Sequence record: OR992645.1
Length of the DNA stretch: 64,000 bases
Direction: 5' to 3' (one strand)
DNA from: Escherichia phage EI-SP-GF
A program made the position numbers and the translations under genes. The stretch's first letter is position 1; each line of letters starts with the position of its first letter. Below, piece by piece: positions 2,839 through 32,794 of this stretch. Below the pieces are notes generated by a model. It ran no database searches. It was not told where the DNA came from and worked only from the letters and a program-made list of their open reading frames with translations.

Positions 2839-2905
2839 AAATTATCAACACAGGGGGTTGCAAAACCTCCTTTGGCGTGATAAAATAATCCACATGGGGA
2901 ATAAG

Positions 2906-4302: not shown

Positions 4303-4322
4303 GACATTAACGGGGGAAATAA

Positions 4323-4712: not shown

Positions 4713-4759
4713 GCCCTAAATTGTTCGGGAAATATTTAAGTTTTACTTTGGAGAAATAA

Positions 4760-6676: not shown

Positions 6677-6685
6677 TTTTGTTAA

Positions 6686-6720
6686 GGCCCCTTCCAAATC
6701 AGGAATGGGGCTTTATTTTT
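6686..6720 (+). terminator. weak hairpin plus T-tract
   Basis: ccccttcc-aaatca-ggaatgggg followed by ctttattttt. Confidence 0.35.
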
Positions 6721-6735
6721 ACGAGGTATTTTCAA

Positions 6736-7356: not shown

Positions 7357-7362
7357 AAATTG

Positions 7363-7391
7363 TTGCTTTTGATGTATCTTTGTGGTAAAAT
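7363..7391 (+). promoter_or_regulatory. sigma70-like promoter TTGCTT-N17-TAAAAT with TGn extended -10
   Basis: ttgctt 7363-7368, 17-nt spacer ending tgg, taaaat 7386-7391; RBS gaggaa and ATG 7410 follow. Confidence 0.45.
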
Positions 7392-7409
7392 ACATTAGTG
7401 AGGAATATA

Positions 7410-7868
7410 ATGCTAAAGGTTAAATGTCAAACAAGGTTCAACCTAAAGCGTTTAGATCGCTTTTATAAAGACCTTGTGAAACTTGAAAGCAAAACAATAA
7501 CCTACGGCTTTTATGATGAACCTCACCCGTCAGGCTTAAATATGGCAACATTGGCAGCTATTCACAACTTCGGTTGGAACGGGCTGCCTGTTCGCAATTT
7601 CATGGAGACGGCCTTTGCATTTCACAGCACGCAACTACAGACCTTGACAGAAAAATTGTTGAGAGCTATGGCTAGAGGATCAAGTGCAGAGGCTGTTCTT
7701 AGACAGATGGGGGACACAGGGGCCAAAGCTATCCAGTTTGTTATTGAGGCTGGTCAGTTTAGTAACCCTACTGTTAGTGAGCAGTGGGCACAAGAGAAGG
7801 GCTTCAACGAGGCTATGCGGCATTACGATGTGCTGCTTGAATCTGCAACCTTTAAAATTGGACAGTAA
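7410..7868 (+). CDS. head-tail joining / neck protein (hypothetical)
   Basis: ORF in track starts GTG 7398; ATG 7410 has better RBS spacing; position between head and tail genes. Confidence 0.45.
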   Translation: MLKVKCQTRFNLKRLDRFYKDLVKLESKTITYGFYDEPHPSGLNMATLAAIHNFGWNGLPVRNFMETAFAFHSTQLQTLTEKLLRAMARGSSAEAVLRQMGDTGAKAIQFVIEAGQFSNPTVSEQWAQEKGFNEAMRHYDVLLESATFKIGQ

Positions 7869-7882
7869 AATAAGGGGGTTGA

Positions 7883-8308
7883 GTGGCAGCAGGTTATAAG
7901 CTGATAGGAAAGAACAGGCTAATACCTCGTAAAACATTCAAAGGTCGCCACAGAGTGTATAACAAAACAGTTGGTGGTCCTTTTGCTAACGAGGGGTTAG
8001 AACTTGAGTATGAAGAGTTTGATGTCTTAGAGTGTGTTGTGCAGCCGTTGACAGGAAGGGCAGCTAAAGATTACTCCTCTCAAATAAATCCTGAGGGTGA
8101 CAGACAGTACGAGGCTTTTACAGTTTACTCCTCAACCAAGTTGTATAGTCCAGACGAAGGAACATATGCAATGGCTGATCAAATTCAACTGCCTGACATC
8201 CGTGGTGACCTGAAGTGGTTTACCGTTTTAAAATGTGATGCTTATGTCACGTCTGGTGGTGGAAGATATAGATTTTTTGTGGTAGAAGAGCCTGAAGGAG
8301 AAAACTGA
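7883..8308 (+). CDS. head-tail joining protein (hypothetical)
   Basis: 141-aa ORF, GTG start with AAGGGGG RBS. Confidence 0.45.
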   Translation: MAAGYKLIGKNRLIPRKTFKGRHRVYNKTVGGPFANEGLELEYEEFDVLECVVQPLTGRAAKDYSSQINPEGDRQYEAFTVYSSTKLYSPDEGTYAMADQIQLPDIRGDLKWFTVLKCDAYVTSGGGRYRFFVVEEPEGEN

Positions 8309-16469: not shown

Positions 16470-17146
16470 TGGCAATAAACAGGAAAGATGCTGCTGTAAG
16501 ATCCTTTATAGAAAAAATAATGAGGGACTACCACACCAGTATTAGAGCCAGAGTTGTCAGTGTAGATTACAGTATCCCCTCTGCAGCCGTGCAGCCAATA
16601 GCCGAAACCATGTTTGACGATGGGGATGTAGAAAGGTACCCTCTTATCTATGATGTTCCAATCCAGGTGATGTCTGCAAACGGTGGGAAGGCAAGGTTAA
16701 CGCTTCCTATTAAAGCTGGTGATGTTGTAGGGCTGCAATTTTCAGAGAGAAATGAAAACAATAACGATGACCAGCAAACCCACGGCCTGTTTCCAGGATG
16801 GGCTATCACCTCTGTTCATTCAGACTCGAATGCTTTGCAGATCGATCCTGATAATGTAGAGTTATGGAATGATAGGGTTTATTTTAAGCTAACACCTTCT
16901 GGTGATTTTGAGCTTCAAACACCTGGTGGGACATTACGGTGCGACAGTAGCGGGGAGTTTTCTTTCACCAACGGGGCTGCCAATTTACGAGCTGCTGTGG
17001 ATGGAAATATCAGAATGAATGGTGCCACAATAGACCCATCAGGTAGAATTATAACGGCTGCTGGTGTGGATTTGGACTCATTCTATGCAGAATATAAAGG
17101 TCATACCCACTCTTGCCCTGATGGCGAGACAAGTGGACCGCACTAA
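16469..17146 (+). CDS. baseplate central spike protein (P2 gpV-like)
   Basis: 225 aa ending ...YKGHTHSCPDGETSGPH, resembling the His-containing apex motif (HTH..PGD.GGTTG.P) of gpV-type spikes. Confidence 0.65.
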   Translation: MAINRKDAAVRSFIEKIMRDYHTSIRARVVSVDYSIPSAAVQPIAETMFDDGDVERYPLIYDVPIQVMSANGGKARLTLPIKAGDVVGLQFSERNENNNDDQQTHGLFPGWAITSVHSDSNALQIDPDNVELWNDRVYFKLTPSGDFELQTPGGTLRCDSSGEFSFTNGAANLRAAVDGNIRMNGATIDPSGRIITAAGVDLDSFYAEYKGHTHSCPDGETSGPH

Positions 17147-17158
17147 TAGAGGGCTTGA

Positions 17159-17875
17159 ATGGCTACGCTTTATAGTGATATATTGATGGACCCACAGACA
17201 GGTGATTTGGCGATAGACAAAGGTCTTGAGTTGATAGATTCAAACCAAGTAAGTCTGCGCCAGCGCCTGTGGATGAGGTTTAATACATGGAAGGGGAGCT
17301 GGTACTTTGATGAGTTGTTTGGCTTCCCTTATATGGACTTTCTCAGTAAGAAGGTCATGAAGACTGTTCTTGATAACAAGATTATGGAAGTGGCAAGACA
17401 AGAGCCAGATGTGCTAAACATCATAAACTTCCAGTCTACTATGGATCGAAGATCGAGAACATACCAAGCGTTCTTTGAGGTTGTTACCAAGGAGAACGAG
17501 ATTGTAAGGCTGGCTTTCGTAGGTCTTGATCAGTTTACCTACCCACAGCCTGATGACGGGGCAACCTCTCTTTGTGATGATGAAGGTTGGATTAAGTGGG
17601 CTAATAAACTGTACTACCTGATCAACTTCAGATTGCCTAGAACTGGAGATGCTACGTGGTGGAACCAGTATGCTGGTCCTGAGATGGAAAACCCGATTCC
17701 TGTAGGTTCTCTGTTGACTCAGAATAAAGATCTGTTGATGACTGATGCAGAACAAACCATTAACCGCAATACCTGGACGCTTGCTCCAGATGAGCGCGAA
17801 TATTCTGGTGTTATTGCTACCTCTAATGATGAGGCTATTGCCAACCAGTCTGGTCGTGCTATCGATGTTAACTAA
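17159..17875 (+). CDS. baseplate wedge protein (gpW/gp25-like N-terminal domain)
   Basis: N-terminal region GDLAIDKGLELIDSNQVSLRQRLWMRFNTWKGSWYFDELFGFPY...EPDVLNI fits gpW/gp25 pattern. Confidence 0.5.
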   Translation: MATLYSDILMDPQTGDLAIDKGLELIDSNQVSLRQRLWMRFNTWKGSWYFDELFGFPYMDFLSKKVMKTVLDNKIMEVARQEPDVLNIINFQSTMDRRSRTYQAFFEVVTKENEIVRLAFVGLDQFTYPQPDDGATSLCDDEGWIKWANKLYYLINFRLPRTGDATWWNQYAGPEMENPIPVGSLLTQNKDLLMTDAEQTINRNTWTLAPDEREYSGVIATSNDEAIANQSGRAIDVN

Positions 17876-17884
17876 GGAGAAATC

Positions 17885-18553
17885 ATGGCTGTAGCTTATC
17901 CTACAATACCAATCCCAGATCTTGAAGATGCAGAAACAGTCTTGAGTGATGACTTCTTGGTTGTCAACCAGACTGACGGGACAAGAAAGGCTAAGATTGA
18001 TGATGTTGTCAATGATCTTAGCATTACTAAAATAGTTTATTTCACAGAGGGCGGTTATCTTAAGAGCAAGAAGGATTTTGCTTATGATCCGGAAACTAAG
18101 CGCTACTACACATGGAATGGAGATTATCCTAAAATAATCCTCCCAGATTCTACTGTAGAGGGTGCCGGAGGTGTGTCTGCAAAAGCATGGTCTGTTTTTG
18201 GAGAGCTTGCTGCAACTTCTTCAGGTAGGATAGTTGATTACGGCTCTATTGGTGGTCAACTTGACATGGATCTTGACGTTGCAGACACGTTTAAAGTTCG
18301 GCTCACTTCAAACACTACAATCTCTTTTGAAAATCAAACAGAAGGGCTCGACGGAGTGGCAAGAACTATAACTGTATGCATAACGCAGACCTCGGGTGGT
18401 AACAAAGTTTATTGGCCTGACAATGTTAAATGGGCCTACGGGAGAGATCCTATCCTAACATTTACAGCTGGTGCAACAGACATTTTCAAGTTGGAAACAT
18501 ATGATAATGGACTAACTTGGTACGGGGCACTGATCATCGCAGGAGCTATCTAA
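17885..18553 (+). CDS. tail fibre/tailspike N-terminal anchor-domain protein
   Basis: 222 aa; N-terminus (DDFLVVNQTDGTRKAKIDDVV...FTEGGYL...DFAYDPE) is paralogous to the N-terminus of the 1268-aa fibre at 21188. Confidence 0.55.
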   Translation: MAVAYPTIPIPDLEDAETVLSDDFLVVNQTDGTRKAKIDDVVNDLSITKIVYFTEGGYLKSKKDFAYDPETKRYYTWNGDYPKIILPDSTVEGAGGVSAKAWSVFGELAATSSGRIVDYGSIGGQLDMDLDVADTFKVRLTSNTTISFENQTEGLDGVARTITVCITQTSGGNKVYWPDNVKWAYGRDPILTFTAGATDIFKLETYDNGLTWYGALIIAGAI

Positions 18554-18554
18554 G

Positions 18555-21152
18555 ATGCGTATTCAACACAACATTGATAACGTATTTCAGATGATCGAGG
18601 GGCACAGGAAGTGCCTCGATAACAACACAGGTATTACCAATCTCCCTACACAGAACAAACTGGTAAACCAGGATGGACTTATAGCGTCAGGTTGGTCAGG
18701 AAGTAAGATAAATAATGATTGGGCAATGCATGAGTCCCAAGCCGTGTTGATTCTGGGATACATTGAGGCATACAGGGCATCAAAAAGCGATTTTTATCTA
18801 GACAGGGCCAAAGAGGCTTGGGAAGCCTACAACAGTCATCTTCTGGGAGTATATGCAGTAGAAAGTAAAATGCAAAGATTGTCCCACTACCCGTTATCCA
18901 CAGATGGAGTTCCATCACATGGTGGGTTTAAAGATGTGGTTGTGTCTTTTAACAAAGGTAGAGGAAAAATCCCAGCAGGATCCCCGACATGGGGAGAATA
19001 CTTGGACAAGGCTTTTCAGGCGTATAACGGTGTTTTAGGAAGAAACACTGTAGACTCTGATGTTTACGGCGGCACAGATGCTAATCCTAATTGGACAACT
19101 TCCGGATTAAGTTGGTGGGTTGAGTGGTATATAGCATGGGATGGTAACCGCTATTGGGCCAACGGTAGCATAGCCGACAGTGGTCATACGTCTGCAGAGT
19201 TCGGCACAATCCAACTGCAAGATAAGGGTGTTACAGGCAACCACAAGGTTACCTATTGTGTGAGATTGCCTAAAGAGCAGGGAGGATCGGTGATACCTGC
19301 TGGATCCCCTGTAATTGTAAATCCTATAAACGTGGTTGCAGACAATCAAGCCCCAGAGTTAGACGGGGAAGAGATGTGGTGTGACGCTTGTTATCAACTC
19401 TACACCTTGACAGGTGAGGAAAAGTATTACACCGCGTTTAAGCAGTCTTACAATAAGTTGCTTAATTTTAGTGATATAAATGCCTACGACAAGCTGTTCA
19501 GAAAGACCACGTTGATTAAGGCCCCGTTCACAGATGGCACTTGTCTAGTTGCAGGAACAGTACCTGTCATGAGTAGGGATAGTGACGGATATATCAATTT
19601 TAGAATGAACGCACGCCAGCCTTGCGAAATAATCCAAAAAGGGACTACATACAAAATAGGCAGAGATGCTGAAATTGTTATGAATTTCGGAGGAGAAGGG
19701 GTTCTGTTCCAGCCACATTTCATCCTTAATGATGGCAACAATAACAAAAAACAGTACAGAATAGGTGTACCTTTTGGAGGGGCAGAGGTAACAGAAACAG
19801 TTGCCAAGGTTACTGATTTTGTAGAGGTGGTTGGTAAAGACGGTAACCCGTATCTCTTGCCAAAAGAGGAAAACATTGCCGTAAGCGGTGGCGCTAGTGT
19901 TAGTATGCAGTATGATACCGACATTTACAACCACTCTGACAACTTCACCCGTTGCAACATAGTAAGAGGCAAGGTAACTTTCAATTTTGGAAGAGAGATT
20001 TCTTTAAACTCAGTGACTTATCGGTCAGATGATGAGATGGTAAGGGTCAAATTTCTTGACAAAGACCGTTGGTTATGGTATGCTGATCTATATGCTACTA
20101 ACGGGCAATGGATAACAGAAACTCTTACCCTGGGCGATTTTAAACTAGACCCAACACAACCTCATCACACAGAAGATGAGATTAAACCTTTCTTTGCTAA
20201 CCCTAAAGGAATTACCTCTGTAGATTTCAGTCTGAGCGACAGGCAGATAGGCAATGGCTTGTTCGATCTGTATTGCGTCAACACGCTGCCGCAATTTTAT
20301 GTTGCAGATAGGGATGCTTATCTGATCTGGTTTAGTGTATGGATGGCAAGCAAGACAGAATCAACCGCCAAGGTTGGTGATTGCTATGTCAGAAACTACA
20401 AGCAAGGAGCATACAGACACACTCCTGGTGTGTTCCCTGCTGGGAAGGTGATAGATAAGGAAAACTATCTCTTAGAGGAAAAGCCAAATTGGCCCTATCC
20501 TGGCATGCAATACCCAGCAGTCTACTGCATGGGTGCAGAAAACATAGATCGCCATAGATTGTCAAATACAATAGGCTTTCTGTACGACTCTCAAGTCTGG
20601 TATAATAATACATTTAAGACAGAGGGTCCAGTTGCCTCACGTTATGTATGGCAAAGAGGTAATGAAGGGTTGACTGGTTGGTGGGAGATGGTAGATAACT
20701 CTAAGCTCCAGTCAAGATCTTTTGTTGCTGCGTGCCGCACAATATATGAGCTCAAGAAACATAAAGAACCTGTTGATGAAAGACTGTTCCTGTTCTGCCA
20801 GAAATGGGCATGGTTCCTCAACAGATTCCAGTCATCTCATTCAGGAAATCTACCTACAGACTTTAACACCTCTGGAGGATACTCTTATCAGGACAGAGGA
20901 GACAGGATGTGGGTGGTAGGTGAATGGCTTGCAGGTTGCTGCTGGCTAGGTCTTTGCGGGTATTCAGAGACAATACCTCAAATAGATATTGTTGTAGAGG
21001 CCTGTATGAAGTTACTGCAAAAGCACCACTTCATTAACGGGGATAATGTTTTAAACGGCTGCTGGGCAGTTTCTGATCCGGTAGGCTATCACTCTGGCGA
21101 AATCCTTCGCGGTCTGGGACTTTATGCTCAATACCGTGGATTGTACCTTTAA
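18555..21152 (+). CDS. large tail-associated protein, putative carbohydrate-active enzyme (depolymerase candidate)
   Basis: 865-aa ORF starting 1 nt after the anchor-protein stop with AGGAGC RBS; Trp/Tyr-rich, no fibre repeats; enzymatic role is inference. Confidence 0.4.
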   Translation: MRIQHNIDNVFQMIEGHRKCLDNNTGITNLPTQNKLVNQDGLIASGWSGSKINNDWAMHESQAVLILGYIEAYRASKSDFYLDRAKEAWEAYNSHLLGVYAVESKMQRLSHYPLSTDGVPSHGGFKDVVVSFNKGRGKIPAGSPTWGEYLDKAFQAYNGVLGRNTVDSDVYGGTDANPNWTTSGLSWWVEWYIAWDGNRYWANGSIADSGHTSAEFGTIQLQDKGVTGNHKVTYCVRLPKEQGGSVIPAGSPVIVNPINVVADNQAPELDGEEMWCDACYQLYTLTGEEKYYTAFKQSYNKLLNFSDINAYDKLFRKTTLIKAPFTDGTCLVAGTVPVMSRDSDGYINFRMNARQPCEIIQKGTTYKIGRDAEIVMNFGGEGVLFQPHFILNDGNNNKKQYRIGVPFGGAEVTETVAKVTDFVEVVGKDGNPYLLPKEENIAVSGGASVSMQYDTDIYNHSDNFTRCNIVRGKVTFNFGREISLNSVTYRSDDEMVRVKFLDKDRWLWYADLYATNGQWITETLTLGDFKLDPTQPHHTEDEIKPFFANPKGITSVDFSLSDRQIGNGLFDLYCVNTLPQFYVADRDAYLIWFSVWMASKTESTAKVGDCYVRNYKQGAYRHTPGVFPAGKVIDKENYLLEEKPNWPYPGMQYPAVYCMGAENIDRHRLSNTIGFLYDSQVWYNNTFKTEGPVASRYVWQRGNEGLTGWWEMVDNSKLQSRSFVAACRTIYELKKHKEPVDERLFLFCQKWAWFLNRFQSSHSGNLPTDFNTSGGYSYQDRGDRMWVVGEWLAGCCWLGLCGYSETIPQIDIVVEACMKLLQKHHFINGDNVLNGCWAVSDPVGYHSGEILRGLGLYAQYRGLYL

Positions 21153-21187
21153 CATAGGGGGCTGTTTGCCCCCTTTCAGGAGAAAGA

Positions 21188-24100
21188 ATGGCTGATATTA
21201 AAGTTGTCAGAATTGAATCTCTTCCTGCCACTACCGCAGTGACAGAGGATGATTACCTGGTTGTTCAACAACCAGACCTGACCCGTCGTGTAAAAATTGG
21301 CGATGTTGTCCATGTGGATGGGACTGTTTCTCATGTAATCTCCTTTAAGGAAGGTGGTAAGTTAAACGGCCCAATGGATTTTGCCTACTTCGAAGAGGAA
21401 GATCTATACCTGCGTTGGAAAGGCGAATTTCCACACACTGTCCCTGCACTGTCTTCACCATATTCTGACGGTGGTATTACTGACGCTGCGTGGATGGTAT
21501 ATACAGATCCGTCCTTAAGGGAGGAGCTGGAGTCTACCATTGGCGCATCTATGATCATGACAGCCGAAGGGCAGTCTGTCCAAGATGTAATGGATGTTAC
21601 TGTTCAGACAGCCAACGATGCTAAAGCACTTGCACAGCGGGTAGATTTTGGCACAGTGCATACTGTAGGCGATGTTATTCACCTTGTCAACTTTGTTGGT
21701 CCTGCAGTTATTGAAGAGGGAAGAACTACTAACTACCCTTCTGAAGCGGCGGGTGAAAAATTTCTGAACGGTGTGGTATCTCGTCGTGATACTACAACTG
21801 TTGATGGCATTTTCCGTGGCGCTACCTCCGGAGCCATGTATACCATTGCAGTAACCAACGGTGTAGCAACAACAAAAAGAATAGCACTTCGTGACGAATT
21901 TAAACGCCTGGAGGCAAACAACCCAACAAGAACAGTTATCCGTGCCGGAGATGATTTAAACACAGCAGGGTACTTGCAGCTTGATGCAACAGGCCGTTGG
22001 GGTATGTGGAACCAACAAACAGCTTCGTGGCAACCTCTTGCTATAGAGCAAGGCGGCACAGGGGCCAGAGATGCCGCAGGTGCACGCATTAATTTAGGGG
22101 CTTTCTATAAGCAACGTGCAGCCCTTGAGTCAAATTTTAATATCAATAACTTGACTGGTAATCAGGATGGTATATACTACCAGCCGATGACTGCTTATGC
22201 AACTGAGGCAAATGGTTACCCTGCAGGTTCTGGTGCTGGTCACTTGATTGTCTGGCAGAACAATGCTAACGGCGGTACAGGTTGTCGTCAGGAATACTAT
22301 CCATTCTCTAACGTAGATGTTTGGTATTTGAGAACCTATCAGGCCAACACAAATCAGTGGACTGCATGGCAGCCAATGGTCAGACCCCGTAACGATGAGA
22401 CCTTTAGATCGCACATCGGTCTTGGGTCTAGGAATTCTCCTACCTTCGGGCACCTTTACCTGTCTCAAAGCTCGGCTGATGTTAAGTCGGCATCAGGTAT
22501 TGTTAACGGGGACAAATACAGCGCTGACGGTGTCCTTGAGCATGGGTATAGGATCTACTCTGAGGTAAGAAACGACAATAAGGCTTGGTTGACAATCCAC
22601 CTGCACAAAGGCGCAAAAGGATCTGAAACTCATAGATATTTAGGCTTCCGCGAGGATGGGGTCTTAGATTGTCCTAAATATATGCAGGTTGGTGATCTGA
22701 ACGGTCAGCTGGCAAACTGGGGACTTGGAGAATGGATCCGCAGTTCAGGAGCAGAAAGAGGTTTCTGGGGATCTAAGAAAGCCGCCAAGATGGTTATCTG
22801 GGATGGCGGTATGGACGAGCAAGGTGAAGGAACGCTTGAGTGGGGTGTTTATAACAACCGGAAAGCCAAATGGGAACCACTACCGATAGCTTGTGGTGGT
22901 ACCAGTGCCAGGACTGTAGGGGATGCTCAAGCACAATTCAGAATCCCTCTGGCATCAGGCGCTAGACCATATGTAAACCTGCCTAGAACTGCAGCTATGC
23001 AGGACGGTAAGTATTATCCTATTATCGTCAGAACTGACCCCAACTTTGCAGCAACTATCGGGACAGATTTAACCATTGTCACCAGATCTTCTTCTGGCGG
23101 CGACCCAATGAACTGTGCTACACTACAGTGTCACTACAGAACTGGTGGCTGGACAGACAGAGGTGATTCTTTCCAAGGGGTTATTAATTTCTACCAAAAC
23201 GAGAGAGCAATCCTCGGATGTGTATCTCCAACCAGAGGTAAGCAGGAGTATGTTGCATTCTATGTAGAGGCACGTGCATTCCCTGTTACAGTATATGCTG
23301 GCGCTACTGTAATAGAAGTGTCAACCAGGGAGGCTGATTGGCAAGTAGGCAACGTGACAGGTAACCAAGATGGTGTCAAGTTCTGTGCTCCTCTGGAATC
23401 TGCAGATTTGAGTCTTGCAATCAAAGGTGATGATGTAACAAACACCAGACCTCTGGTTGAGTTCAAAGGAACATCAGGTTTCTACACTGGTGGTGGAACT
23501 ATGTGGCACTACCTGGGGACTCCTGAACGCTATGCAGTGATGAGCAAAACGAACATGCCTAAAGTCGAGCTGTGGGCAGACGGTCTTGACTATTTGTGCT
23601 ACGGCGGTCCTAGAAAGGCATTATTCTCTAACGCGGGATTCCAGTGTGCATCTGACGGAACAGAGGATCTAACTAACGGCACGTTTACCTCTAAATGTGG
23701 TAATGGTGCTGGCCTTAAAGGCCAAGCAGAGTTCAGGTCTACTCCAGAAGCTGGTCAAGTTATTGTTCGAGATGTTGTGGGAACAGCTCATAGATTCTAC
23801 AACTTCAACAAAGATGGTACTTTCTCAGCCCCAGGTGGTTTTGTATGTCATACTGGTGGAGACTGGAACAACCAGTTCGGGCCTAATAACCCGTCAAAAA
23901 TAATGGCTGGCAACGTCAACGGACCAGAAGGTTCGATGGTTGTTGGTGGGTTGTCTGTGGCGTTTTCTGGAAACTATGCCTTCCAAATGGCTGGTCGCCT
24001 TGATCAGTTATACACCAGATCTATTGAGGGTGGTAACCACAGGGCGTGGAACAAAGTTATTCAGCACCGTGGTCAAGGTCTGGGGACAGAAGACCTTAAT

Positions 24101-24994
24101 GCCTACGATGGTAGCCGTGAAGGTTTCTATCACCAAGGTTCAAACGCTGACGCACTTGTAATAGATCGCCACTACCCTGCTCCGTACGCTGGTACACTGC
24201 TTGTTTACAAAAACACAGCTAACAGACCTCAAGGTTGTGTGCAGGAATATATCACCTATTTTGGTGACAGATATACTCGTGCTGGTAACTACGTTGGCGA
24301 TGTCTTTACTTGGGAAGAATGGAGACACGATGCTGGTAAAGGCATTCAGTTAAGACCTAATTACACTTTTGGTGAAACCAGTAATCAACTGGAAATTCAT
24401 GTCGGTGCTAATAGTCTTTCTAGCAACGCCGATAACTTACCTACCAATACAGGTAGAATGTTCTATTGGGGTAACGCAGACAGGAAGAACGTGCTTGAGT
24501 TTCAGGTAAACGACAACGCTGCATCTGCTAGCTGGGTATTCCACTGTGGCACTAGGTCAGACGAGGCTAAGTCAAGATATTTTGCTGTCAACGGTGTAGT
24601 AGAGTGCACCACTGTGAGCCAGAGCTCTGATAGAGACCTGAAGGACAATATAGAGGTTATTCCTAACGCGCTGGAAGCTATCCGTAAGATGAAGGGCTAT
24701 ACCTACACTTTAAAAGAGAATGGTATGCCTCACGCGGGGGTAATTGCTCAAGAGGTCATGGAAGCATTGCCAGAGGCAGTAGGGTCTTTCGTGAAAAGGA
24801 AGGAAATCCCAAACCCTGATCAAGATGGAACTCCTTTGATAACAGAAGAAAGGTTCTATAACGTTGACTACGCAGCTGTAACAGGCTTGCTTGTCCAGGT
24901 TTGCAGGGAACAGGACGATAAAATAACCGCCCTTGAGGAGCAGGTTAAAAAATTGACAGAGGTTGTTACTGGGTTGCAAGAGAAACTGAAGTAA
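21188..24994 (+). CDS. tail fibre/tailspike with C-terminal intramolecular chaperone (peptidase S74-like)
   Basis: 1268 aa; N-terminal anchor domain; GGTGARDAAGARINLG and GGTSARTVGD fibre motifs; C-terminus SDRDLKDNIEVIPNALEAIRKMKGYTYTL...GVIAQEVMEALPEAV matches S74 autoproteolytic chaperone signature. Confidence 0.75.
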   Translation: MADIKVVRIESLPATTAVTEDDYLVVQQPDLTRRVKIGDVVHVDGTVSHVISFKEGGKLNGPMDFAYFEEEDLYLRWKGEFPHTVPALSSPYSDGGITDAAWMVYTDPSLREELESTIGASMIMTAEGQSVQDVMDVTVQTANDAKALAQRVDFGTVHTVGDVIHLVNFVGPAVIEEGRTTNYPSEAAGEKFLNGVVSRRDTTTVDGIFRGATSGAMYTIAVTNGVATTKRIALRDEFKRLEANNPTRTVIRAGDDLNTAGYLQLDATGRWGMWNQQTASWQPLAIEQGGTGARDAAGARINLGAFYKQRAALESNFNINNLTGNQDGIYYQPMTAYATEANGYPAGSGAGHLIVWQNNANGGTGCRQEYYPFSNVDVWYLRTYQANTNQWTAWQPMVRPRNDETFRSHIGLGSRNSPTFGHLYLSQSSADVKSASGIVNGDKYSADGVLEHGYRIYSEVRNDNKAWLTIHLHKGAKGSETHRYLGFREDGVLDCPKYMQVGDLNGQLANWGLGEWIRSSGAERGFWGSKKAAKMVIWDGGMDEQGEGTLEWGVYNNRKAKWEPLPIACGGTSARTVGDAQAQFRIPLASGARPYVNLPRTAAMQDGKYYPIIVRTDPNFAATIGTDLTIVTRSSSGGDPMNCATLQCHYRTGGWTDRGDSFQGVINFYQNERAILGCVSPTRGKQEYVAFYVEARAFPVTVYAGATVIEVSTREADWQVGNVTGNQDGVKFCAPLESADLSLAIKGDDVTNTRPLVEFKGTSGFYTGGGTMWHYLGTPERYAVMSKTNMPKVELWADGLDYLCYGGPRKALFSNAGFQCASDGTEDLTNGTFTSKCGNGAGLKGQAEFRSTPEAGQVIVRDVVGTAHRFYNFNKDGTFSAPGGFVCHTGGDWNNQFGPNNPSKIMAGNVNGPEGSMVVGGLSVAFSGNYAFQMAGRLDQLYTRSIEGGNHRAWNKVIQHRGQGLGTEDLNAYDGSREGFYHQGSNADALVIDRHYPAPYAGTLLVYKNTANRPQGCVQEYITYFGDRYTRAGNYVGDVFTWEEWRHDAGKGIQLRPNYTFGETSNQLEIHVGANSLSSNADNLPTNTGRMFYWGNADRKNVLEFQVNDNAASASWVFHCGTRSDEAKSRYFAVNGVVECTTVSQSSDRDLKDNIEVIPNALEAIRKMKGYTYTLKENGMPHAGVIAQEVMEALPEAVGSFVKRKEIPNPDQDGTPLITEERFYNVDYAAVTGLLVQVCREQDDKITALEEQVKKLTEVVTGLQEKLK

Positions 24995-25001
24995 CTGTTT
25001 T

Positions 25002-25093: not shown

Positions 25094-25684
25094 ATGTTTT
25101 TATGGGAAAGGCCTAGATACCTTCCAGATATTAGATTGGAGCTGCTGGCAGATATTGTTACGTTTAAAAGTCCGTTTACAGGTAAAACGCAAAAAGTGAC
25201 CTATGCCACACCTAACTGGAAAGGCACTTTGACGGTTTCCAATATCAGCGAGTCACAGTTGCTAGAGCTTAAGAGCTTTGTTGATCAGGTGTATAAAGAC
25301 GGGAACATTTTTCTTATTAAAACGTACGGTCACTCAGTAACAGCTAATGAGCCAATCGCCCTTGGGCCTACCGGTAACGACGATTTTTTGAAGACGGTCG
25401 GATGGGAGCCAAACAGAGACATAGCCAGAGCTGGGGATAAAATATCTGTTAACGATGAATTGAAAGTGGTAACAGCTCCAGTGCGCAGCGATGGTGTTGG
25501 GTCTGCTGTTATAAGCATATCTCCAAGACTTAGAAAACCTATTGCCGCAGGGGACACTATGAAGATAATAACTCAATCCCCAAAGGGTAGGTTTCATATC
25601 AGAGATATTTATAAAATTAAGCAAAAAGTCGATGCTATGCAAAAAGGTGATAATATAGTTATCAACTTCTTTGAGGATTTCTAA
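25094..25684 (+). CDS. tail tip assembly protein (lambda gpM / GTA g12 position, tentative)
   Basis: 196-aa ORF with GGAGG RBS, first gene of a four-gene run ending in the lambda J-like protein. Confidence 0.4.
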   Translation: MFLWERPRYLPDIRLELLADIVTFKSPFTGKTQKVTYATPNWKGTLTVSNISESQLLELKSFVDQVYKDGNIFLIKTYGHSVTANEPIALGPTGNDDFLKTVGWEPNRDIARAGDKISVNDELKVVTAPVRSDGVGSAVISISPRLRKPIAAGDTMKIITQSPKGRFHIRDIYKIKQKVDAMQKGDNIVINFFEDF

Positions 25685-25685
25685 G

Positions 25686-26237
25686 ATGATTAGAGCGCCA
25701 TTAGATAATTTATTTCTTGAAAAGCTGGAGCTTGATAGTGTTGAGATCTTAATTGCTGCAAAGCTAGAGCTACCAACAGGGACTGTCAGGGTGTGCTCAG
25801 GAACTGGTGTTGTGGTGATTGAGGGGCAACATTTTATAGGGATAGGTGGATCAGCAACATTGACTGCTGTGTCTGAGAAAGATGCTACCAACTTCGGATC
25901 TGTGGTAGCAACATTGAACGGATTTGATCCCAAGTATGTAGGTGATCTGCTGAAGACAGAGTATTCGGGTTGTCGTGCCACGTTGTATATCACAGCTATG
26001 GAGAATGGTTTACCTGTTACAACCAATGGCTTGTTTGACGGCCTTATAACAGACATGGCTATTCAGACAGGGGAGAATAGTGCTTTGTCCATATCCATAT
26101 CTTCCATCTTCAACAGCTGGTTAAGAGGTTTTCCTTATCGATACACAGAGGAGAGCCATAGCTCAAGAAACGATAATGACAGATTTTTTAAATATGTGGA
26201 TCAGGTGGCAAGCCGCCCGATCATTTGGGAGGTTTAA
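25686..26237 (+). CDS. tail tip protein (lambda gpL / GTA g13 position, tentative)
   Basis: ORF frame opens 25671; ATG 25686 follows upstream stop; position-based call. Confidence 0.4.
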   Translation: MIRAPLDNLFLEKLELDSVEILIAAKLELPTGTVRVCSGTGVVVIEGQHFIGIGGSATLTAVSEKDATNFGSVVATLNGFDPKYVGDLLKTEYSGCRATLYITAMENGLPVTTNGLFDGLITDMAIQTGENSALSISISSIFNSWLRGFPYRYTEESHSSRNDNDRFFKYVDQVASRPIIWEV

Positions 26238-26662
26238 TGAGCACACACCCTCGTTTAGTAGACTGGCAAGAAAGATTGTGGAAAGTGTTTGACGAAGAAG
26301 CTACCGTCCAGTTTGAATGGGGATTCCACGATTGTTGCACTTTTGCGGCTAAATGTGTTGATGCCCAATATGGAACAGATTTTCTTTCTAACTTTGAAGG
26401 AACGTATAAAACAGAGTTGGAAAGCAAGAGATGGTGCATGCTCCGTTTCAAAACCACCCACCTGCCTACTATTTTTGATCTCTTTTTGACTCGACTGGAT
26501 ACTCCTAAACAGGTTCAGCGTGGCGATATTGTTATTTTCGAAGGTCTGAACGGGCTCACCGCTGGTGTGTTCTGGAACAACCAGATTTGGGCGAAAGGTG
26601 ATAAGGGGATCTTTATGTTCGACATGAAAGATTCTATCGTTGTTGATGTCTGGAGGTATTAA
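26237..26662 (+). CDS. NlpC/P60-like tail tip protein (lambda gpK C-domain / GTA g14-like)
   Basis: EWGFHDCCTFAAKCV (Cys-containing motif) and RGDIVIFEG; catalytic His not evident; located directly upstream of J-like gene. Confidence 0.4.
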   Translation: MSTHPRLVDWQERLWKVFDEEATVQFEWGFHDCCTFAAKCVDAQYGTDFLSNFEGTYKTELESKRWCMLRFKTTHLPTIFDLFLTRLDTPKQVQRGDIVIFEGLNGLTAGVFWNNQIWAKGDKGIFMFDMKDSIVVDVWRY

Positions 26663-29600
26663 TGCCAATTGCAATGATTGATAACATCGTTGCTTCTGCA
26701 AGATCTTCGAGCTATGACTGGAACGCATCCAAGGCAGCTCTGGCTGACAGCCTGAACACTGTTACCACCAGAACCCTGGATAAGATTTTCGAAGGTAACA
26801 AATCTTACAGAAGTCAGCAAGATAGACAAAAGCTTCTCAGATCTTCTGCTGCACCTTGCTCTGTAGTGTATGGGAAGACACGCACATCTGGATTGCTTGC
26901 GTTTTTGGAGCAGGACAGGGACAGAACCCTTCATTGTGCTATTGTTCTTGCCAATCATCCCTTGGAAGGTATAGAAGATATACTTATCGACGGTAATCCT
27001 ATTTCCTCGTATGGGGATTTGGTATCGTGGGAGTTACATAACGACAGGAAAACCTCTGATCCTTTCATGGGTACACACTGCCCTTCGTGGTCACCAGACA
27101 TGATAGGTAGAGGGATCAGTTGGCTACGTGCCAGCTTTAAGTTTGACCCTAACAAGTTTCCTTTTGGGTTGCCAAACGTTACACTCGTCAAGGTTGGTAA
27201 AAAATGTTATGATCCTCGTATCAGTAAAGAGGTGTATACCAATAACGCTGCCTTGGTGATTCTGGACTACCTAAGAACGTACCTTAAATGTCCTGACGAA
27301 ACCATCAACTGGGAGTCCTTCAAGGAAGCTGCCAACATATGCGATGAGGCTGTAAAAAACGCGGACGGAACCAGTGAGCGCCGTTACACCATTAATGGCG
27401 AGTTCGACATGGATGAAGCACCAGCAAGCATTATGGCAGAGATGCTGAAAGCTTGTGGTGCAGACCTTAGCTATGTAGCTGGCAAATATGGTCTGCTGGT
27501 AGGTGCATACTATGGCCCGGCAACAATGACACTTAGCGAGAACTGTGTTTGCGGTGAGGTTAAGATCTATCCTGAAGCCTCCTTCGACAAAAGATCCAAC
27601 ACAATAACTGGCAGATTCACTAGTCCGGCCAAAGGGTATTCTGAAACAGATTTTCCATCAGTGTTTGTCCCAGAGTGGGTAGAGAAGGATGGAGAAAGAA
27701 AGATAATCGATATAGATTATCGCTTTGTTACCAGTCCTTATCAAGCTCAGCGTGTTTCTGCAATCTTCTTAAGACGTGCCAGAGCTGGTAGGATTATTGA
27801 AGTAACCTGCAATATGCGGGGTTTTAAATTTAAGCCTGGGCGTTACGTTACGATGGACCTCCCAAGTATTGGTATAGTGGGCCAAGAAATGAGGGTTCTT
27901 GAATGGGAGTTCACCAAAAAGGGCGGTGTCAAGGTAAAACTCCGTCAAGATGCTAAAGAGTGGAATGATGCCACAGGGCAACTTCCGGATTCTGGAGATG
28001 TGGATATTCCGATATCCCCGTCCGGCGTAGCTCAACCGCAAAACTTCAGATACTCTGTTCTTCAAGCTGGGGAAGTAACTCATGGTGTTTTGGCTTGGGA
28101 CAACGTTGGAACTTATGCTCAAAATATTGTGCAGGTAAGAAAGAACGGAGAGATTATTTGGACAGCACAGACAGTTGAGCAGTTTGTCCGCGTAGAAGGA
28201 TTGACCAAAGGGTCATACACAGCAACCGTGGTTGCAACATCTTATAAAGGTGGTGTATCTCCAGAAGCTTACTGCGAGTTTAACATTCAAGCACCTGAAG
28301 CTCCTGTTTCTGTAGAAGTTAAGCAGGGATACTTTGCTATCACCTTGATTCCGCACAGCAGGGACTTAGCAAGTGTAAGCACCCAGTATGATTTTTGGAC
28401 ATCTGGTATGACAAGGTTGCCGGACACAAGTGATGCAACCGTTACTTCAAAAGCCACCCGTATGGGTGTTGGTTCAACTTGGACATCTGAAGGTCTGCAG
28501 AACGATAAGATTTATTATTGGTATATTCGAACCACAAACGCTTTTGGTAGTTCTCAGTTTGTAGAATGCGCTGCACGCTGCTACACCTCTATTGAAGATT
28601 TGATGCCTCAGATAGATGCTGAATTTAAAAAGACAGAAACTTATAAAGAGTTGATGAGCACTTTAGATTCCTCTATCGAGGAGGTTGAAAATCGTGTCAC
28701 AGAGCTTAACAAGTACATGGACGGAAGGGTAGATGAGGCATTCCAACAACTTGGAGATAGGATAGGTGCGGTAGTTGCAGAGACAACTCAGAAGTTTGAG
28801 GATGTCAATGGTAATATCACAGCTCTGGATAGGAAACTTGTTGCTGCACAGAACAAGTTCACCAACGATCTGAACACTGAAAGTGGAAGACTGGCATCCC
28901 TGATCGAGACAACCAATAAAGCAACCACTGATCTTCTGAACAAAAAGACAGAGGCTTTAGACGAGAAATTGGTTGCAGCCAAAGGGGAGTTGGTAGAACA
29001 AATAAGTGGTGTGGAGAGCGGATACCTTGCCGGAGATAAAACTCTAGATGGCAAGATCAATACCCAGAGAACGGAACTTGATGCAAGCATCTTAAGCACC
29101 AACCAGGCGACAGTGGATCTTCTCAACAGGACATCTGAAACTTTGGATCAAAAGATCAGTCAGACAAACGCGACGGTATCTAAGAACTATACCACCCTTG
29201 ATGGTAAGATAACTACCGCAAAAACTGATCTCAATACCTTGATTGCCAATACCAACAAGGCCACCACAGATTTGTTGAATCAGAAAACCTCTGCACTGTC
29301 GGAGCAGATAACTTCTGCACGTGGAGAAATTTCTACCAACAAACAGGCGATTAAGGATTTGGATGGTAAGCTGACCTCCACAAAAACAGCACTGGACGCT
29401 ACAATCTCCGATACCAACAAAGCAACCGTGGATCTTATTAACGGCACAGCGTCAGCTATTCGTCAAGAACTTGCTGTTGCTAAGCAGGAGATCATTGATG
29501 ATGTCGGTGATGTGTCAGAGCTTAGAGCTGCAGTAGCTACAACATCTAAGGCTGTGACAGACTTAGAGGGCAAAGTAACTGCTCAATGGGGCACAAAAAT

Positions 29601-30501
29601 ACAGGTAGACTCCGCAGGGAATAAGTATGTGGCAGGTATCCAATTGGGCATGGAAGGCTCTGGAGGCCAAGTTCAATCATACTTCATGGTTAGTGCAAAC
29701 AACTTTGCGGTATACAACCCCGGAAATGGAACAGCAACCCTTGCTTTCGCAATCAAGAACAACCAAGCATTCTTGAAAGATGCTTTTATAGAGAACGGGA
29801 CGATCTCTTCTGCCAAGATTGCACAAGAAATTTCGTCTAACAACTACGATGGCAACGGGTACCATAAATACGGTTGGTATATTAACAAGAACGGACACGC
29901 CCAGTTTATGGATGTGTGGGTGAAAGGTAACATCAACGCTAGTGCAGGTAACTTCACAGGGGCAGTTAACGCTACCAGTGGCACTTTCCGTGGGGATGTT
30001 TATGCCAATAATGGTAGCTTTAGAGGCACCATAGATGCAACAGGAGGTACATTCCGTGGACGTGTAGAAGCTTCCGTTATCCGTGCTAACCAGTTCGAAG
30101 GTGCAATCGTTGCACATAGGACCTATGGTGACTGTCCTCCGGTATATAACTCGCAGCAGAGGGTTTGCCGTTGGAGGTGGAGATATGTGGACAACGTTTC
30201 AGGGCAAGGTAAGAACGTAACATTCTTCTTTAAACTAAACGGAACCTTGTCTGGCTCCCAGCTCAACGTTTGGATAGCCGGACATCAAATCCTTGCAGGT
30301 AAGAAGTACGGAAACGACAACAACGGCATGTGTGCGGTAGGGATAACTGGTCTCGGTGAACAAACCATAGACATTATCGTCGAGATATACACACCATGGT
30401 CAACGTCAAGCGTGACAGGAGTTACAATATCTTGTCCAACCGTAATAGTTAGTCGTTCAAACTCTAGCTTCCAGGGACCTTGGAACGAGTCTCATGACTA
30501 A
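26662..30501 (+). CDS. lambda gpJ-like host specificity / central tail fibre protein
   Basis: 1279 aa; FN3-region motifs PEAPVSVEVKQGYFAITLIPH...FW...YYWYIRTTNAFGSSQFVE and VQSYFMVSANNFAVYNPGNG...NNQAFLKDAFI closely parallel lambda J ([21 protein letters not shown]...YYFYIRSVNTVGKSAFVE; LSQFLVAANRIAFIDPANG). Confidence 0.8.
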   Translation: MPIAMIDNIVASARSSSYDWNASKAALADSLNTVTTRTLDKIFEGNKSYRSQQDRQKLLRSSAAPCSVVYGKTRTSGLLAFLEQDRDRTLHCAIVLANHPLEGIEDILIDGNPISSYGDLVSWELHNDRKTSDPFMGTHCPSWSPDMIGRGISWLRASFKFDPNKFPFGLPNVTLVKVGKKCYDPRISKEVYTNNAALVILDYLRTYLKCPDETINWESFKEAANICDEAVKNADGTSERRYTINGEFDMDEAPASIMAEMLKACGADLSYVAGKYGLLVGAYYGPATMTLSENCVCGEVKIYPEASFDKRSNTITGRFTSPAKGYSETDFPSVFVPEWVEKDGERKIIDIDYRFVTSPYQAQRVSAIFLRRARAGRIIEVTCNMRGFKFKPGRYVTMDLPSIGIVGQEMRVLEWEFTKKGGVKVKLRQDAKEWNDATGQLPDSGDVDIPISPSGVAQPQNFRYSVLQAGEVTHGVLAWDNVGTYAQNIVQVRKNGEIIWTAQTVEQFVRVEGLTKGSYTATVVATSYKGGVSPEAYCEFNIQAPEAPVSVEVKQGYFAITLIPHSRDLASVSTQYDFWTSGMTRLPDTSDATVTSKATRMGVGSTWTSEGLQNDKIYYWYIRTTNAFGSSQFVECAARCYTSIEDLMPQIDAEFKKTETYKELMSTLDSSIEEVENRVTELNKYMDGRVDEAFQQLGDRIGAVVAETTQKFEDVNGNITALDRKLVAAQNKFTNDLNTESGRLASLIETTNKATTDLLNKKTEALDEKLVAAKGELVEQISGVESGYLAGDKTLDGKINTQRTELDASILSTNQATVDLLNRTSETLDQKISQTNATVSKNYTTLDGKITTAKTDLNTLIANTNKATTDLLNQKTSALSEQITSARGEISTNKQAIKDLDGKLTSTKTALDATISDTNKATVDLINGTASAIRQELAVAKQEIIDDVGDVSELRAAVATTSKAVTDLEGKVTAQWGTKIQVDSAGNKYVAGIQLGMEGSGGQVQSYFMVSANNFAVYNPGNGTATLAFAIKNNQAFLKDAFIENGTISSAKIAQEISSNNYDGNGYHKYGWYINKNGHAQFMDVWVKGNINASAGNFTGAVNATSGTFRGDVYANNGSFRGTIDATGGTFRGRVEASVIRANQFEGAIVAHRTYGDCPPVYNSQQRVCRWRWRYVDNVSGQGKNVTFFFKLNGTLSGSQLNVWIAGHQILAGKKYGNDNNGMCAVGITGLGEQTIDIIVEIYTPWSTSSVTGVTISCPTVIVSRSNSSFQGPWNESHD
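28860..29480 (+). repeat. in-frame tandem repeat region encoding repeated T-x-NKATTDLLN-x-KT/ TLDGKI coiled-coil units inside the J-like gene
   Basis: protein segments TNKATTDLLNKKTEALDEK / TNQATVDLLNRTSETLDQK / TNKATTDLLNQKTSALSEQ / TNKATVDLINGTASAIRQE recur about every 40 aa. Confidence 0.5.
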
Positions 30502-30605: not shown

Positions 30606-32096
30606 GTGGCTAAGTATGGATTGACAGAGGCTGGTTTCGTTATACCAACCCTAAATGACCTAATCGTTGAAACTAAGCAAAGCCTGATCCGTGCTTTTGG
30701 CGAAAACTTCAACGTACAGAGTAACTCCGTTGCAGATAAGCTGACCACTATCTTCAACGAGCGAGAGTATCAACTTATTCTTATGGCAGCATCTGTATAC
30801 GCATCGCAGACGCTGTATGGGGCAGAAGGTATTTACCTGGATGAGCTTCTTGGAAGACAGGGTATTTACCGAAGAGGCCGTTCTAAATCATCAGGTACCT
30901 GCCAGTTGACAATCAACACAACTGTGCCGTACAATATGATTTATGATTCCAAAACTTATACGCTGGACAGTGGCAACTTTGTTCTTAGCAACGATGTGCA
31001 GGTGGCGGGAAATCTTATTGCTCACAGAATAAACGCTCCAGACCTAAGAATTGGGAAATACAACTTTCAAATTACCAACCAGACAGACGGAAGTATCAAA
31101 ACAAAAAGTCTGGTTTTAACAGATAAGGCTCTGGACTCTTCTGATTTGCCAAGCTTTTACGGCGAGATTAAGCAATTCATTGTCGATAATACAACCCTGC
31201 TGAATGATGATTTAATTCAGATAGATATGTTGACAGGGACGTTGTGGATAGGGTACAATTCGAATCTTGATCAAGTTGGACTTAATAGCAGGGTAGATTT
31301 CAGAGTATCCCCGATTGTAGGGGAAAGAACTATCACCCTAGATGTTATCGCTAACGAGGCTGGTGAGCTGTCAAGAGAGGCAGAAACCGTGACAACAATG
31401 TCACCTACTCCCAGTGGATTTATCAAGCTTACCAACCGAGAAAGATTCAATGAGGGTAGGGATGTTGAGAAAGACTCTGAGTATCGCTTAAGAGCTTCCA
31501 GCACTAAACAGCTGACATCTAAAGCTACCCGTCCTGCAATCCTTAGCGCTGTAAGCGAGGTGAAAGGTGTTGAGAAAGTAAGAGTGTTCTCCAACAACAC
31601 CGATAAAACGGATGCGAAAGGTATACCACCTTATAAGTTTCAAGTGGTGGTGTTTGGTGGTGCAACAGAGGATATCTGTCAGGCGCTGTATCAAACCATA
31701 GCTTGCACAAACAGAACTTATGGGAATATCTTCTACGATATTACCACATCAGACGGTCAGACTGAAAGGATTTATTACTCCAAGGCAAATACCTACCGCC
31801 TAGATGTAAGAATTACCTACTCAGGTGCTGCGCTTTCCACAACCGAAAAAGATGCCATTGTAGAGGCTCTTTTACAGGTTGTTAACGGACTGGATGTTGC
31901 AGATACGTTGTACAATATCCAATTGGTTGGTGCTGCATCAGCTGCTGTGTCAATAGGCAGATTTAACAGACTTGTGATTCAAGTAAAACCTGTGGGAGCC
32001 TCTGATGAAGCTTACACTACAAACGATATTGTTGCAAACATGACTGAGGTGTTTGACCTAGACGAAAGTAATATAACTTTCCAACAAACTATTTAA
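30606..32096 (+). CDS. baseplate J-like wedge protein (P2 gpJ / T4 gp6 family, tentative)
   Basis: 496 aa, GTG start with GGAGG RBS; C-terminal half shows the same pattern as P2 gpJ (alternating hydrophobic strands, ...YNIQLVGAA...); followed by gpI-like gene. Confidence 0.45.
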   Translation: MAKYGLTEAGFVIPTLNDLIVETKQSLIRAFGENFNVQSNSVADKLTTIFNEREYQLILMAASVYASQTLYGAEGIYLDELLGRQGIYRRGRSKSSGTCQLTINTTVPYNMIYDSKTYTLDSGNFVLSNDVQVAGNLIAHRINAPDLRIGKYNFQITNQTDGSIKTKSLVLTDKALDSSDLPSFYGEIKQFIVDNTTLLNDDLIQIDMLTGTLWIGYNSNLDQVGLNSRVDFRVSPIVGERTITLDVIANEAGELSREAETVTTMSPTPSGFIKLTNRERFNEGRDVEKDSEYRLRASSTKQLTSKATRPAILSAVSEVKGVEKVRVFSNNTDKTDAKGIPPYKFQVVVFGGATEDICQALYQTIACTNRTYGNIFYDITTSDGQTERIYYSKANTYRLDVRITYSGAALSTTEKDAIVEALLQVVNGLDVADTLYNIQLVGAASAAVSIGRFNRLVIQVKPVGASDEAYTTNDIVANMTEVFDLDESNITFQQTI

Positions 32097-32107
32097 GGCG
32101 GTGAGAT

Positions 32108-32794
32108 ATGGCAGAGATTAAGTCGGATGTCAACCACATCCACACTCTGCCAGATTTTGTTCAGGGAGGTCTTGATTACCTGCCTGGAGATTTTCTGGCT
32201 GAGAAGGTTAATTTAGTCACATTCTTAACCGTGTACCTTAAAAGGTTGGAGGATGTTGATAAAATGCTGGTAGGCTTGGCTGAAGGAAGATTGCTTAACA
32301 ATGCCAGCGGGAGATACCTTGACGAAGTTGGTAATCAACTCGGTATTCTTCGGAATGGGCTTTCAGATGCGGATTTTCGTGCTACCCTGGTTATTCAGCA
32401 AGCAGCAGCATCAAGGGGTGGGACTCGCGAAGATGTCATCTCCACCTTGCGACAATTGTTCGGAAGAGACAATTTCGATACGTGGAAAGGTGACAATTTC
32501 AGGTTTGACATAAACATTAGAAAAACTTGCTTTGACATATTGCAGTCTATCGACCAGATCTTAGATATGCTGCCATTGCCTTGTCATTTGCGTCTTACGG
32601 AGTCGCAAGGGCAAGCTTTTGGTTTTGAAGGGGACTCTACAGCTCTCGGCTTCGGATCAGTGTGGGAAGAAAACCAGTTCGGGGTTGGTGGGCTGGCTAC
32701 TTTGTTATATGTTCCTGACGTAAGACCTGATTGGGATACCACAACTATTTATTGTGAAAGTATTACAGTAAACGCAACTAGACAGGAGGGTTAA
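32108..32794 (+). CDS. baseplate wedge protein (P2 gpI-like, tentative)
   Basis: 228-aa ORF immediately after baseplate J-like gene. Confidence 0.4.
   Translation: MAEIKSDVNHIHTLPDFVQGGLDYLPGDFLAEKVNLVTFLTVYLKRLEDVDKMLVGLAEGRLLNNASGRYLDEVGNQLGILRNGLSDADFRATLVIQQAAASRGGTREDVISTLRQLFGRDNFDTWKGDNFRFDINIRKTCFDILQSIDQILDMLPLPCHLRLTESQGQAFGFEGDSTALGFGSVWEENQFGVGGLATLLYVPDVRPDWDTTTIYCESITVNATRQEG

Follow-up and report, generated by a model that had tools for sequence, protein, structure and literature searches.

Why should two genes in the tail region of one phage, separated by a third and quite unequal in length, begin with the same hundred or so codons? The question arises in Escherichia phage EI-SP-GF (sequence record OR992645.1), for which a stretch of 64,000 nucleotides (nt), called here the window, was analysed; it is the tail region of an rV5-like Vequintavirus, a myovirus. 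The two open reading frames (ORFs) are ORF222 and ORF1268, with ORF865 between them; by mapping through the PVP-SE1 and BASEL annotations, ORF222, ORF865, and ORF1268 correspond to rV5 gp43, gp42, and gp41, all three of which have been detected in virions by mass spectrometry (rV5 paper). The answer favoured here, with a probability of roughly 0.68, is that the shared stretch is an old head in two parts (sub-modules A and B) that would dock both proteins to the virion, ORF1268 being a variable fibre and ORF222 an adaptor for ORF865.

That the ORFs beginning at 17885 and 21188 are paralogous at their N-termini was the core of the original prediction, and alignment confirms it. BLASTP aligns residues 8-105 of ORF222 with residues 7-105 of ORF1268 with 38 of 99 positions identical (38%; 55% positives, one gap, E 2e-18). 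The score of 72 bits can be compared with those from 200 residue shuffles (mean 10.3, standard deviation 6.0, maximum 22.3). The similarity had been put at roughly the first 90 residues, followed by divergence: there is indeed no significant match past the shared part, but this part extends to about residue 105. The codon-aligned DNA identity of the shared stretch is 51.7%, and third codon positions are equal in 20 of the 40 codons for identical residues, which is the chance level; the duplication of the head is therefore old. A recent duplication or gene conversion of the head was considered, and is ruled out by the same figures.

The head has just these two copies in the window. A hidden Markov model (HMM) of the whole module, searched against six frames of all 64 kb, matches only ORF222 and ORF1268, and profiles of sub-modules A and B scanned separately find the same two ORFs alone (E 2e-20 and 5e-21 for the A profile). 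None of the three profiles finds a copy of the head in the other fibres of the window (the J-like ORF1279, ORF690, ORF1626, ORF581, and the short fibres).

Part of the head belongs to a known family, common in tailspikes. Both copies match PF18668 (Tail_spike_N, the TSP1/Gp66 N-terminal domain), at residues 51-104 of ORF222 (40.4 bits) and 46-103 of ORF1268 (40.7 bits, against a cutoff of 25 in each case); since the match is limited to residues of about 46-104, sub-module A lies outside it. When a profile built from the two heads was searched against 1.8 billion representative proteins, three patterns of match were obtained. In about 20 clusters, of proteins 110-1599 residues long, the head is complete and begins at residue 1. 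Of the 748 clusters found at E <=0.001, most match profile positions of about 53-112 only, internally and behind other N-termini; a few match positions 1-50 only, with some 60 additional residues ahead of the second half. These patterns divide the head into A (residues 1-48) and B (residues 50-110), a division that also appears in phage phi92: there, gp140 has A fused directly to an ORF222-type C-terminal domain (C-domain) without B, gp143 starts with A, and gp151 has B without A. A is accordingly the part kept at the extreme N-terminus, and B a widely shared neck or head domain.

Among sequences in the PDB, sub-module B of ORF222 has matches that include Sf11 gp13, tailspike proteins (TSPs) 1, 3, and 4 of phage CBA120, and G7C gp63.1, while those of ORF1268 include Sf11 gp13 (1.3e-10), 9d84, and 9lna; the CBA120 tailspike crystal structures (4oj5, 5w6f, 5w6h, 4qnl) were matched at the sequence level only. 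Sub-module A matches no Pfam family and has one weak match to a PDB sequence, residues 28-58 of the crAss001 tail fibre gp22 (E 0.13), which is a lead and not a result. Residues L13, Q29, and T33 of the head core are invariant in both copies and in all relatives, and a D-x-LVV-Q motif is common to them. The gp41 and gp43 proteins of phage Sf14 were tried as relatives and rejected, being unrelated despite their names.

From these comparisons, and by analogy with better-known tails, we infer with good support that the A+B head is a docking anchor. Through it, each protein would be attached in trimeric form to the baseplate periphery. Three observations taken together favour this role. In CBA120, the head domains by which TSP1 and TSP3 attach to their partners take in the PF18668 region (Chao et al.); the N-terminus of gp43 was matched by HHpred to that of the P22 tailspike (rV5 authors); and where ORF222-type proteins occur in other groups of phages, their N-terminal part has been swapped for other sequences, including PF03906. 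The socket for the head would lie on the baseplate wedge. The wedge proteins of the window are homologues of phi92 gp145 and gp146, and in the cryo-electron microscopy (cryo-EM) map of phi92 it is the C-terminal domain of gp145 that fibre I joins.

ORF1268 is the true, variable receptor-binding fibre of the locus. By tblastn, its residues 168-1263 are 32-37% identical to the lateral tail fibres of siphoviruses, which have other N-termini; Salmonella phage Kenya-K16, SE11, HASG4, VAH1, tonijn, and Greed are among the matches at 33-37% identity. Near the other end, residues 1147-1198 match PF13884 (60.6 bits against a cutoff of 22, 1.8e-16), and an HHpred match of rV5 gp41 to the C-terminus of the K1F endosialidase has been reported (rV5 paper). 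Alleles of the gp41 type range from 617 to 1599 residues (617, 827, 988, 1481, and 1599); they have the first 330-455 residues or so in common, and differ past this point by deletions, insertions, and different tips. Such mosaicism is in keeping with the BASEL study, whose authors describe strong variation among alleles of the gene. Within the genus, exchange points are found beyond residues 330-455, approximately, and again at residue 1047; between genera and families they fall at about residues 105-170. Proteins of Seunavirus, for example, have only residues 1-134 in common with ORF1268, with a colanidase-like body after them. The body attached to the ORF1268 head is an exchangeable lateral tail fibre with a predicted self-cleaving chaperone.

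ORF222 has a different character, and the simplest reading of the sequence comparisons is that it would be an adaptor and no receptor binder. Its C-terminal 110 residues or so are modelled by AlphaFold2 (AF2) as a β-sandwich, with a predicted local distance difference test score (pLDDT) of 65-85. The best Foldseek match of this domain is the N-terminal part of CBA120 TSP4 (TSP4-N; E 5e-4); other fold matches are CpaA, StcE, and a gp9-type protein, which are also among the matches given for the XD1 domain of TSP4 (Chao et al.). Nine lineages have a small protein that ends in a C-domain of the ORF222 type and is encoded immediately ahead of an ORF865 homologue: Vequintavirus, Seunavirus, phi92/phAPEC8, Rosemountvirus BP63, Kolesnikvirus, and Aghbyvirus (podovirus ISAO8), between which the adaptor-enzyme cassette is recognised by pairwise BLAST (E 1e-11 to 1e-35), and Erskinevirus Asesino, Asteriusvirus UB, and Vibrio phage D506, which are found with an HMM of the C-domain (E 1e-27 to 1e-32). 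The N-termini of these adaptors are unrelated from one lineage to another, consisting of A+B in the Vequintavirinae, A alone in phi92, a helical segment in BP63, PF03906 in the podoviruses, and other sequences in the jumbo phages. In ISAO8, the large ORF865 homologue has no tail-binding domain and it is the small protein that bears the T7 tail-fibre N-terminal domain, PF03906; on the simplest reading, the small protein here serves as the mount for the large one. In the window, the XD1-like β-sandwich of ORF222 most likely would hold ORF865, and a single type of plug would serve to mount two devices for host recognition at this locus, one a fibre and the other an enzyme borne by the adaptor.

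A fused form of the pair may exist in Serratia phage PCH45. Its "tail protein I" (1658-5656 of the compared locus) is a 1332-residue homologue of ORF865, of which the N-terminal 280 residues, approximately, end in a weak motif resembling the adaptor C-domain (WPENIQW...FYLFTTQNKGQSY; HMM E 0.014). The motif is located just before the conserved ORF865-type N-terminal helix in the same polypeptide, an arrangement that suggests an adaptor-enzyme fusion.

Alternatively, ORF222 might itself be a short receptor-binding fibre, with its β-sandwich as a lectin-like tip and ORF865 attached independently. In CpaA and StcE the same fold does serve to bind glycans, and database annotators label homologues of ORF222 "tail fiber protein". 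The strict adjacency to ORF865 homologues across nine lineages, whatever the type of virion, and the ISAO8 division of labour, in which the ORF865 homologue lacks a tail-binding domain and the small protein carries one, make this quite improbable; so does the 98-100% conservation of ORF222 over about 118 Vequintavirus genomes, whereas ORF1268, the true host-range gene, is variable. As an adaptor for ORF865, then, ORF222 departs from the original prediction, which had seen two different receptor-binding proteins here: the description holds for ORF1268, a variable fibre, but not for the 222-residue protein, given the synteny of its C-domain with ORF865. Other parts of that prediction have fared better. 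Two virion proteins (by the proteomics of rV5 gp41 and gp43) do begin with the shared stretch, which includes a tailspike-head domain and recurs in other phage proteins; and the modular exchange of host-range bodies behind the head is seen in the gp41-type alleles, in Seunavirus, and in the phi92 endosialidase that follows A.

The presumed cargo, ORF865, has the (α/α)6 barrel fold of the six-hairpin glycosidase superfamily. It has no Pfam match of its own, and its homologues give only sub-threshold matches to GH76, GH127, and GH47. Its N-terminal helix (residues 1-25, window positions 18555-18630; consensus IDNVFQLI-GH--FL-RNTG) is unusually conserved among homologues that are otherwise 28-37% identical, and is a candidate for the contact with the adaptor. 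ORF865 would be a conserved glycosidase-like protein, by prediction, without an anchor of its own and carried by ORF222.

A comparable sharing of N-termini is seen in Erwinia phage vEam_W_28 (Kolesnikvirus; 5909-8163 of the compared locus), where the adaptor gp041 stands upstream of an ORF865 homologue. The first 150 residues or so of gp041 are common to the neighbouring 502-residue tail protein gp040 (29% identity, E 4e-12), the same logic in an unrelated myovirus. These N-termini were considered as possible relatives of A, but neither gp040 nor gp041 matches the A profile; only gp039 does, weakly (E 0.056).

Several points weigh against this account of adaptor and anchor. For the XD1 domains of T4 gp10 and CBA120 TSP4, the role described is that of a spacer and not of a binding platform; a trimeric adaptor would have to accommodate an enzyme whose fold is, in most cases, found in monomers; the HMM match behind the PCH45 fusion is weak; and the AF2 model of residues 1-112 of ORF222 is unusable (pLDDT <50, from a shallow alignment). 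As to the head, most copies of PF18668 are internal, behind other N-terminal segments, and gp13 of Shigella phage Sf11 is modelled as touching the tail not with PF18668 but with a bundle of N-terminal helices that precedes it, so that sub-module B may be a neck and not a plug.

Taken further, the last two points would make the whole shared module a generic trimerisation or neck element, inherited along with PF18668, with the real attachment elsewhere. The occurrence of B alone in about 750 protein clusters, and of B without A in phi92 gp151, could be understood in the same way. There is nothing upstream of A in either ORF222 or ORF1268, however, and A alone has been kept at residue 1 of phi92 gp140 and gp143. 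In adaptor homologues of other lineages it is the region ahead of the C-domain that is replaced (by PF03906 in podoviruses, for example), and in CBA120 the heads are required for binding. A generic neck is accordingly given little credence, and docking by the head remains the preferred explanation.

If both heads dock, they might do so, as the original prediction supposed, in one and the same baseplate socket, for which the two proteins would then compete or at which they would alternate. The retention of the same core residues in both copies and in all relatives would be expected of such an arrangement. So might the resemblance between the two Seunavirus paralogues, which are 46-48% identical to each other while the second copy is 35% identical to Vequintavirus gp41; this would fit co-evolution with one shared partner. 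The cross-genus matrix of head identities contains no clean orthologous groups, however: the head of Vequintavirus gp41 stands apart, with 27-37% identity to every head beyond its own allele group, and the Seunavirus second copies are nearer to the gp43 type, a pattern that cannot decide between one socket and two. Other evidence argues against sharing. The heads in the window are only 38% identical, with their DNA saturated. In the phi92 map there are three sets of fibres, six copies of each at its own position, with fibre II joining the base of fibre I. The homologous heads of CBA120 have different docking sites, TSP1 on TSP4 and TSP3 on the TSP2:TSP4 complex. Lastly, the 20-kb locus of phAPEC8 encodes a single A-bearing protein, so a socket needs no pair of plugs. 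A single socket for both heads is therefore considered unlikely, if less so than a generic neck; given the age of the two copies of the head (52% DNA identity), a pair of homologous sockets seems no less probable than a single one.

Over the 8 kb around the three genes, the DNA has 98% identity with that of Escherichia phage ECP32, and some 110 Vequintavirus (rV5-like) genomes match it at 90-94%. The gene order is of the usual myovirus type: tape measure, hub, spike, and a sheath-initiator-like protein (17159-17875), followed by ORF222, ORF865 (starting 2 nt past the ORF222 stop, a gap of 1 nt), and ORF1268. Coordinates are collected in Table 1.

Table 1. Positions in the 64,000-nt window of the two head-bearing proteins, their sub-modules, the proposed cargo, and the candidate socket
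Feature	Positions	Strand	Basis or remark
ORF222, homologue of rV5 gp43, 222 residues; A + B + XD1-like C-domain	17885..18553	+	ATG at 17885; phrog_7760 end to end, 2.6e-118
Sub-module A of ORF222, residues 1-48; proposed docking segment	17885..18028	+	Aligns with residues 1-48 of ORF1268
Sub-module B of ORF222, residues ~50-110; PF18668 Tail_spike_N	18032..18214	+	Pfam
C-terminal β-sandwich of ORF222, residues 112-222, XD1-like; proposed docking platform for ORF865	18218..18550	+	
ORF865, homologue of rV5 gp42; tail protein resembling (α/α)6 six-hairpin glycosidases, with inserted β-sandwiches; would be the cargo of the adaptor	18555..21152	+	
ORF1268, homologue of rV5 gp41, 1268 residues; lateral tail fibre: A+B head, then neck, body of siphovirus type, and C-terminal chaperone	21188..24994	+	ATG at 21188; phrog_6578 end to end
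Sub-module A of ORF1268, residues 1-48	21188..21331	+	Alignment and A profile
Sub-module B of ORF1268, residues ~50-110; PF18668 Tail_spike_N	21335..21517	+	Pfam
Fibre body of ORF1268, residues ~168-1146	21689..24625	+	Homology with the lateral fibres of siphoviruses, both large and small
C-terminal intramolecular chaperone region of ORF1268	24626..24991	+	Peptidase_S74 (PF13884) at residues 1147-1198
Baseplate wedge proteins (496-residue Baseplate_J-like protein and 228-residue partner); possible socket for the A+B heads	30606..32794	+	PF04865

Some neighbouring features deserve mention. Between about 18 and 25 GenBank records numbered MG0656xx, entitled "Campylobacter phage" and with Campylobacter jejuni given as host, are more than 90% identical to positions 17000-25000 of the window; their host labels look doubtful. 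Positions 25094-30501 contain a lambda-type tail-tip module within the myovirus baseplate gene cluster, consisting of a distal-tail-protein-like ORF196, ORF188, ORF145 (DUF6950), and a 1279-residue lambda J-like protein with Ig_J and Phage_Tail_Tip domains; the module is missing from the same position in Seunavirus (PVP-SE1, EC152) and in phi92. At 32794-34866, ORF690 matches the non-contractile tail sheath protein of the N4 gp65 type (PF23845, 6.7e-80; PF23844; Calx-beta). Fibres of the ORF690 type have been tied to recognition of the NGR glycan (2026 preprint).

To keep an N-terminal anchor and swap the receptor-binding body behind it is a textbook route to host-range change in phages, and in this respect the finding is an ordinary case; the GenBank record of PVP-SE1 had already noted the N-terminal similarity of its gp49 to rV5 gp43. 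No published description was found of the division into A and B, of gp43 as an adaptor, or of an adaptor-glycosidase pair across virion types, in a search that had the 2012 phi92 genome paper outside its scope. The mapping of the end of the plug (residues 105-134, approximately, between genera, and later within the genus) is useful for the construction of chimeric fibres in rV5-like therapeutic phages, and ORF222 can be relabelled as a probable adaptor, in place of "tail fiber" or "sialidase domain protein".

A broader proposal is more speculative, and is put forward at somewhat less than even odds: that the XD1-like adaptor and the (α/α)6 glycosidase form a mobile cassette, which crosses between myoviruses, jumbo phages, and podoviruses by a swap of the adaptor's N-terminal plug alone; that A, a sub-module of some 45 residues without earlier annotation, which would be this plug in rV5-like and phi92-like phages and is common to adaptor and variable fibre, would let the two devices dock side by side on the wedge; and that fibre II of phi92 is made up of gp140 and gp141. 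The cryo-EM study of phi92 left fibre II without an assigned gene, and does not mention gp141 in its text. A short adaptor with a globular enzyme of about 100 kDa would fit the published description of this fibre as "short, thick and rigid", and two A-bearing proteins docked adjacently would fit the phi92 map. If the proposal is true, the equivalent in the window would be ORF222 with ORF865, and a concrete candidate is now available for fibre II in cryo-EM maps.

Of the known systems, the tailspikes of CBA120 (TSP1-4) and G7C (gp66 and gp63.1) are the best characterized parallel. Like the window, they have several recognition proteins with homologous PF18668-region heads in one virion, domains of the T4 gp9/gp10 XD type in connecting proteins, and exchangeable receptor-binding bodies. 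Unlike in CBA120, the only XD-type domain detected in the window is the XD1-like sandwich in which a small protein ends; Pfam scans that covered 19 of the tail ORFs gave no T4 gp10-like XD2 or XD3 docking domains. The head is of A+B type where that of CBA120 is D1+D2, and one of the two cargoes is an (α/α)6 enzyme, unlike the β-helix tailspikes of CBA120.

Phage phi92 (Justusliebigvirus) has the same gene order as the window after the sheath initiator. Its gp140 combines A with the same C-domain as ORF222 (41% identity, E 2e-28), gp141 is the homologue of ORF865 (35% identity, E 1e-173), and gp143, like ORF1268, starts with sub-module A. It differs from the window in that gp140 lacks sub-module B, in that the variable partner is an endosialidase (gp143) and not a lateral fibre, and in the presence of a gene for a deacetylase fibre, gp142, between gp141 and gp143. 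In Seunavirus, PVP-SE1 gp51, gp50, and gp49 have a three-gene arrangement identical to that of the window; gp49 is labelled "putative fusion protein" in GenBank, and its body resembles the phi92 colanidase (38% identity over 610 residues), where the window has a lateral fibre.

A further parallel is found in ISAO8 gp38 and its PF03906 relatives in T7-like podoviruses. They have the same C-terminal domain with an ORF865 homologue next to it, a short adaptor presenting the enzyme of the next gene, but their N-terminal part is PF03906 instead of the A+B of ORF222. This logic of an adaptor with a next-gene enzyme resembles that of the adaptor proteins of phages SP6 and K1-5, and of the "anchor-branch" depolymerase systems of Klebsiella phages.

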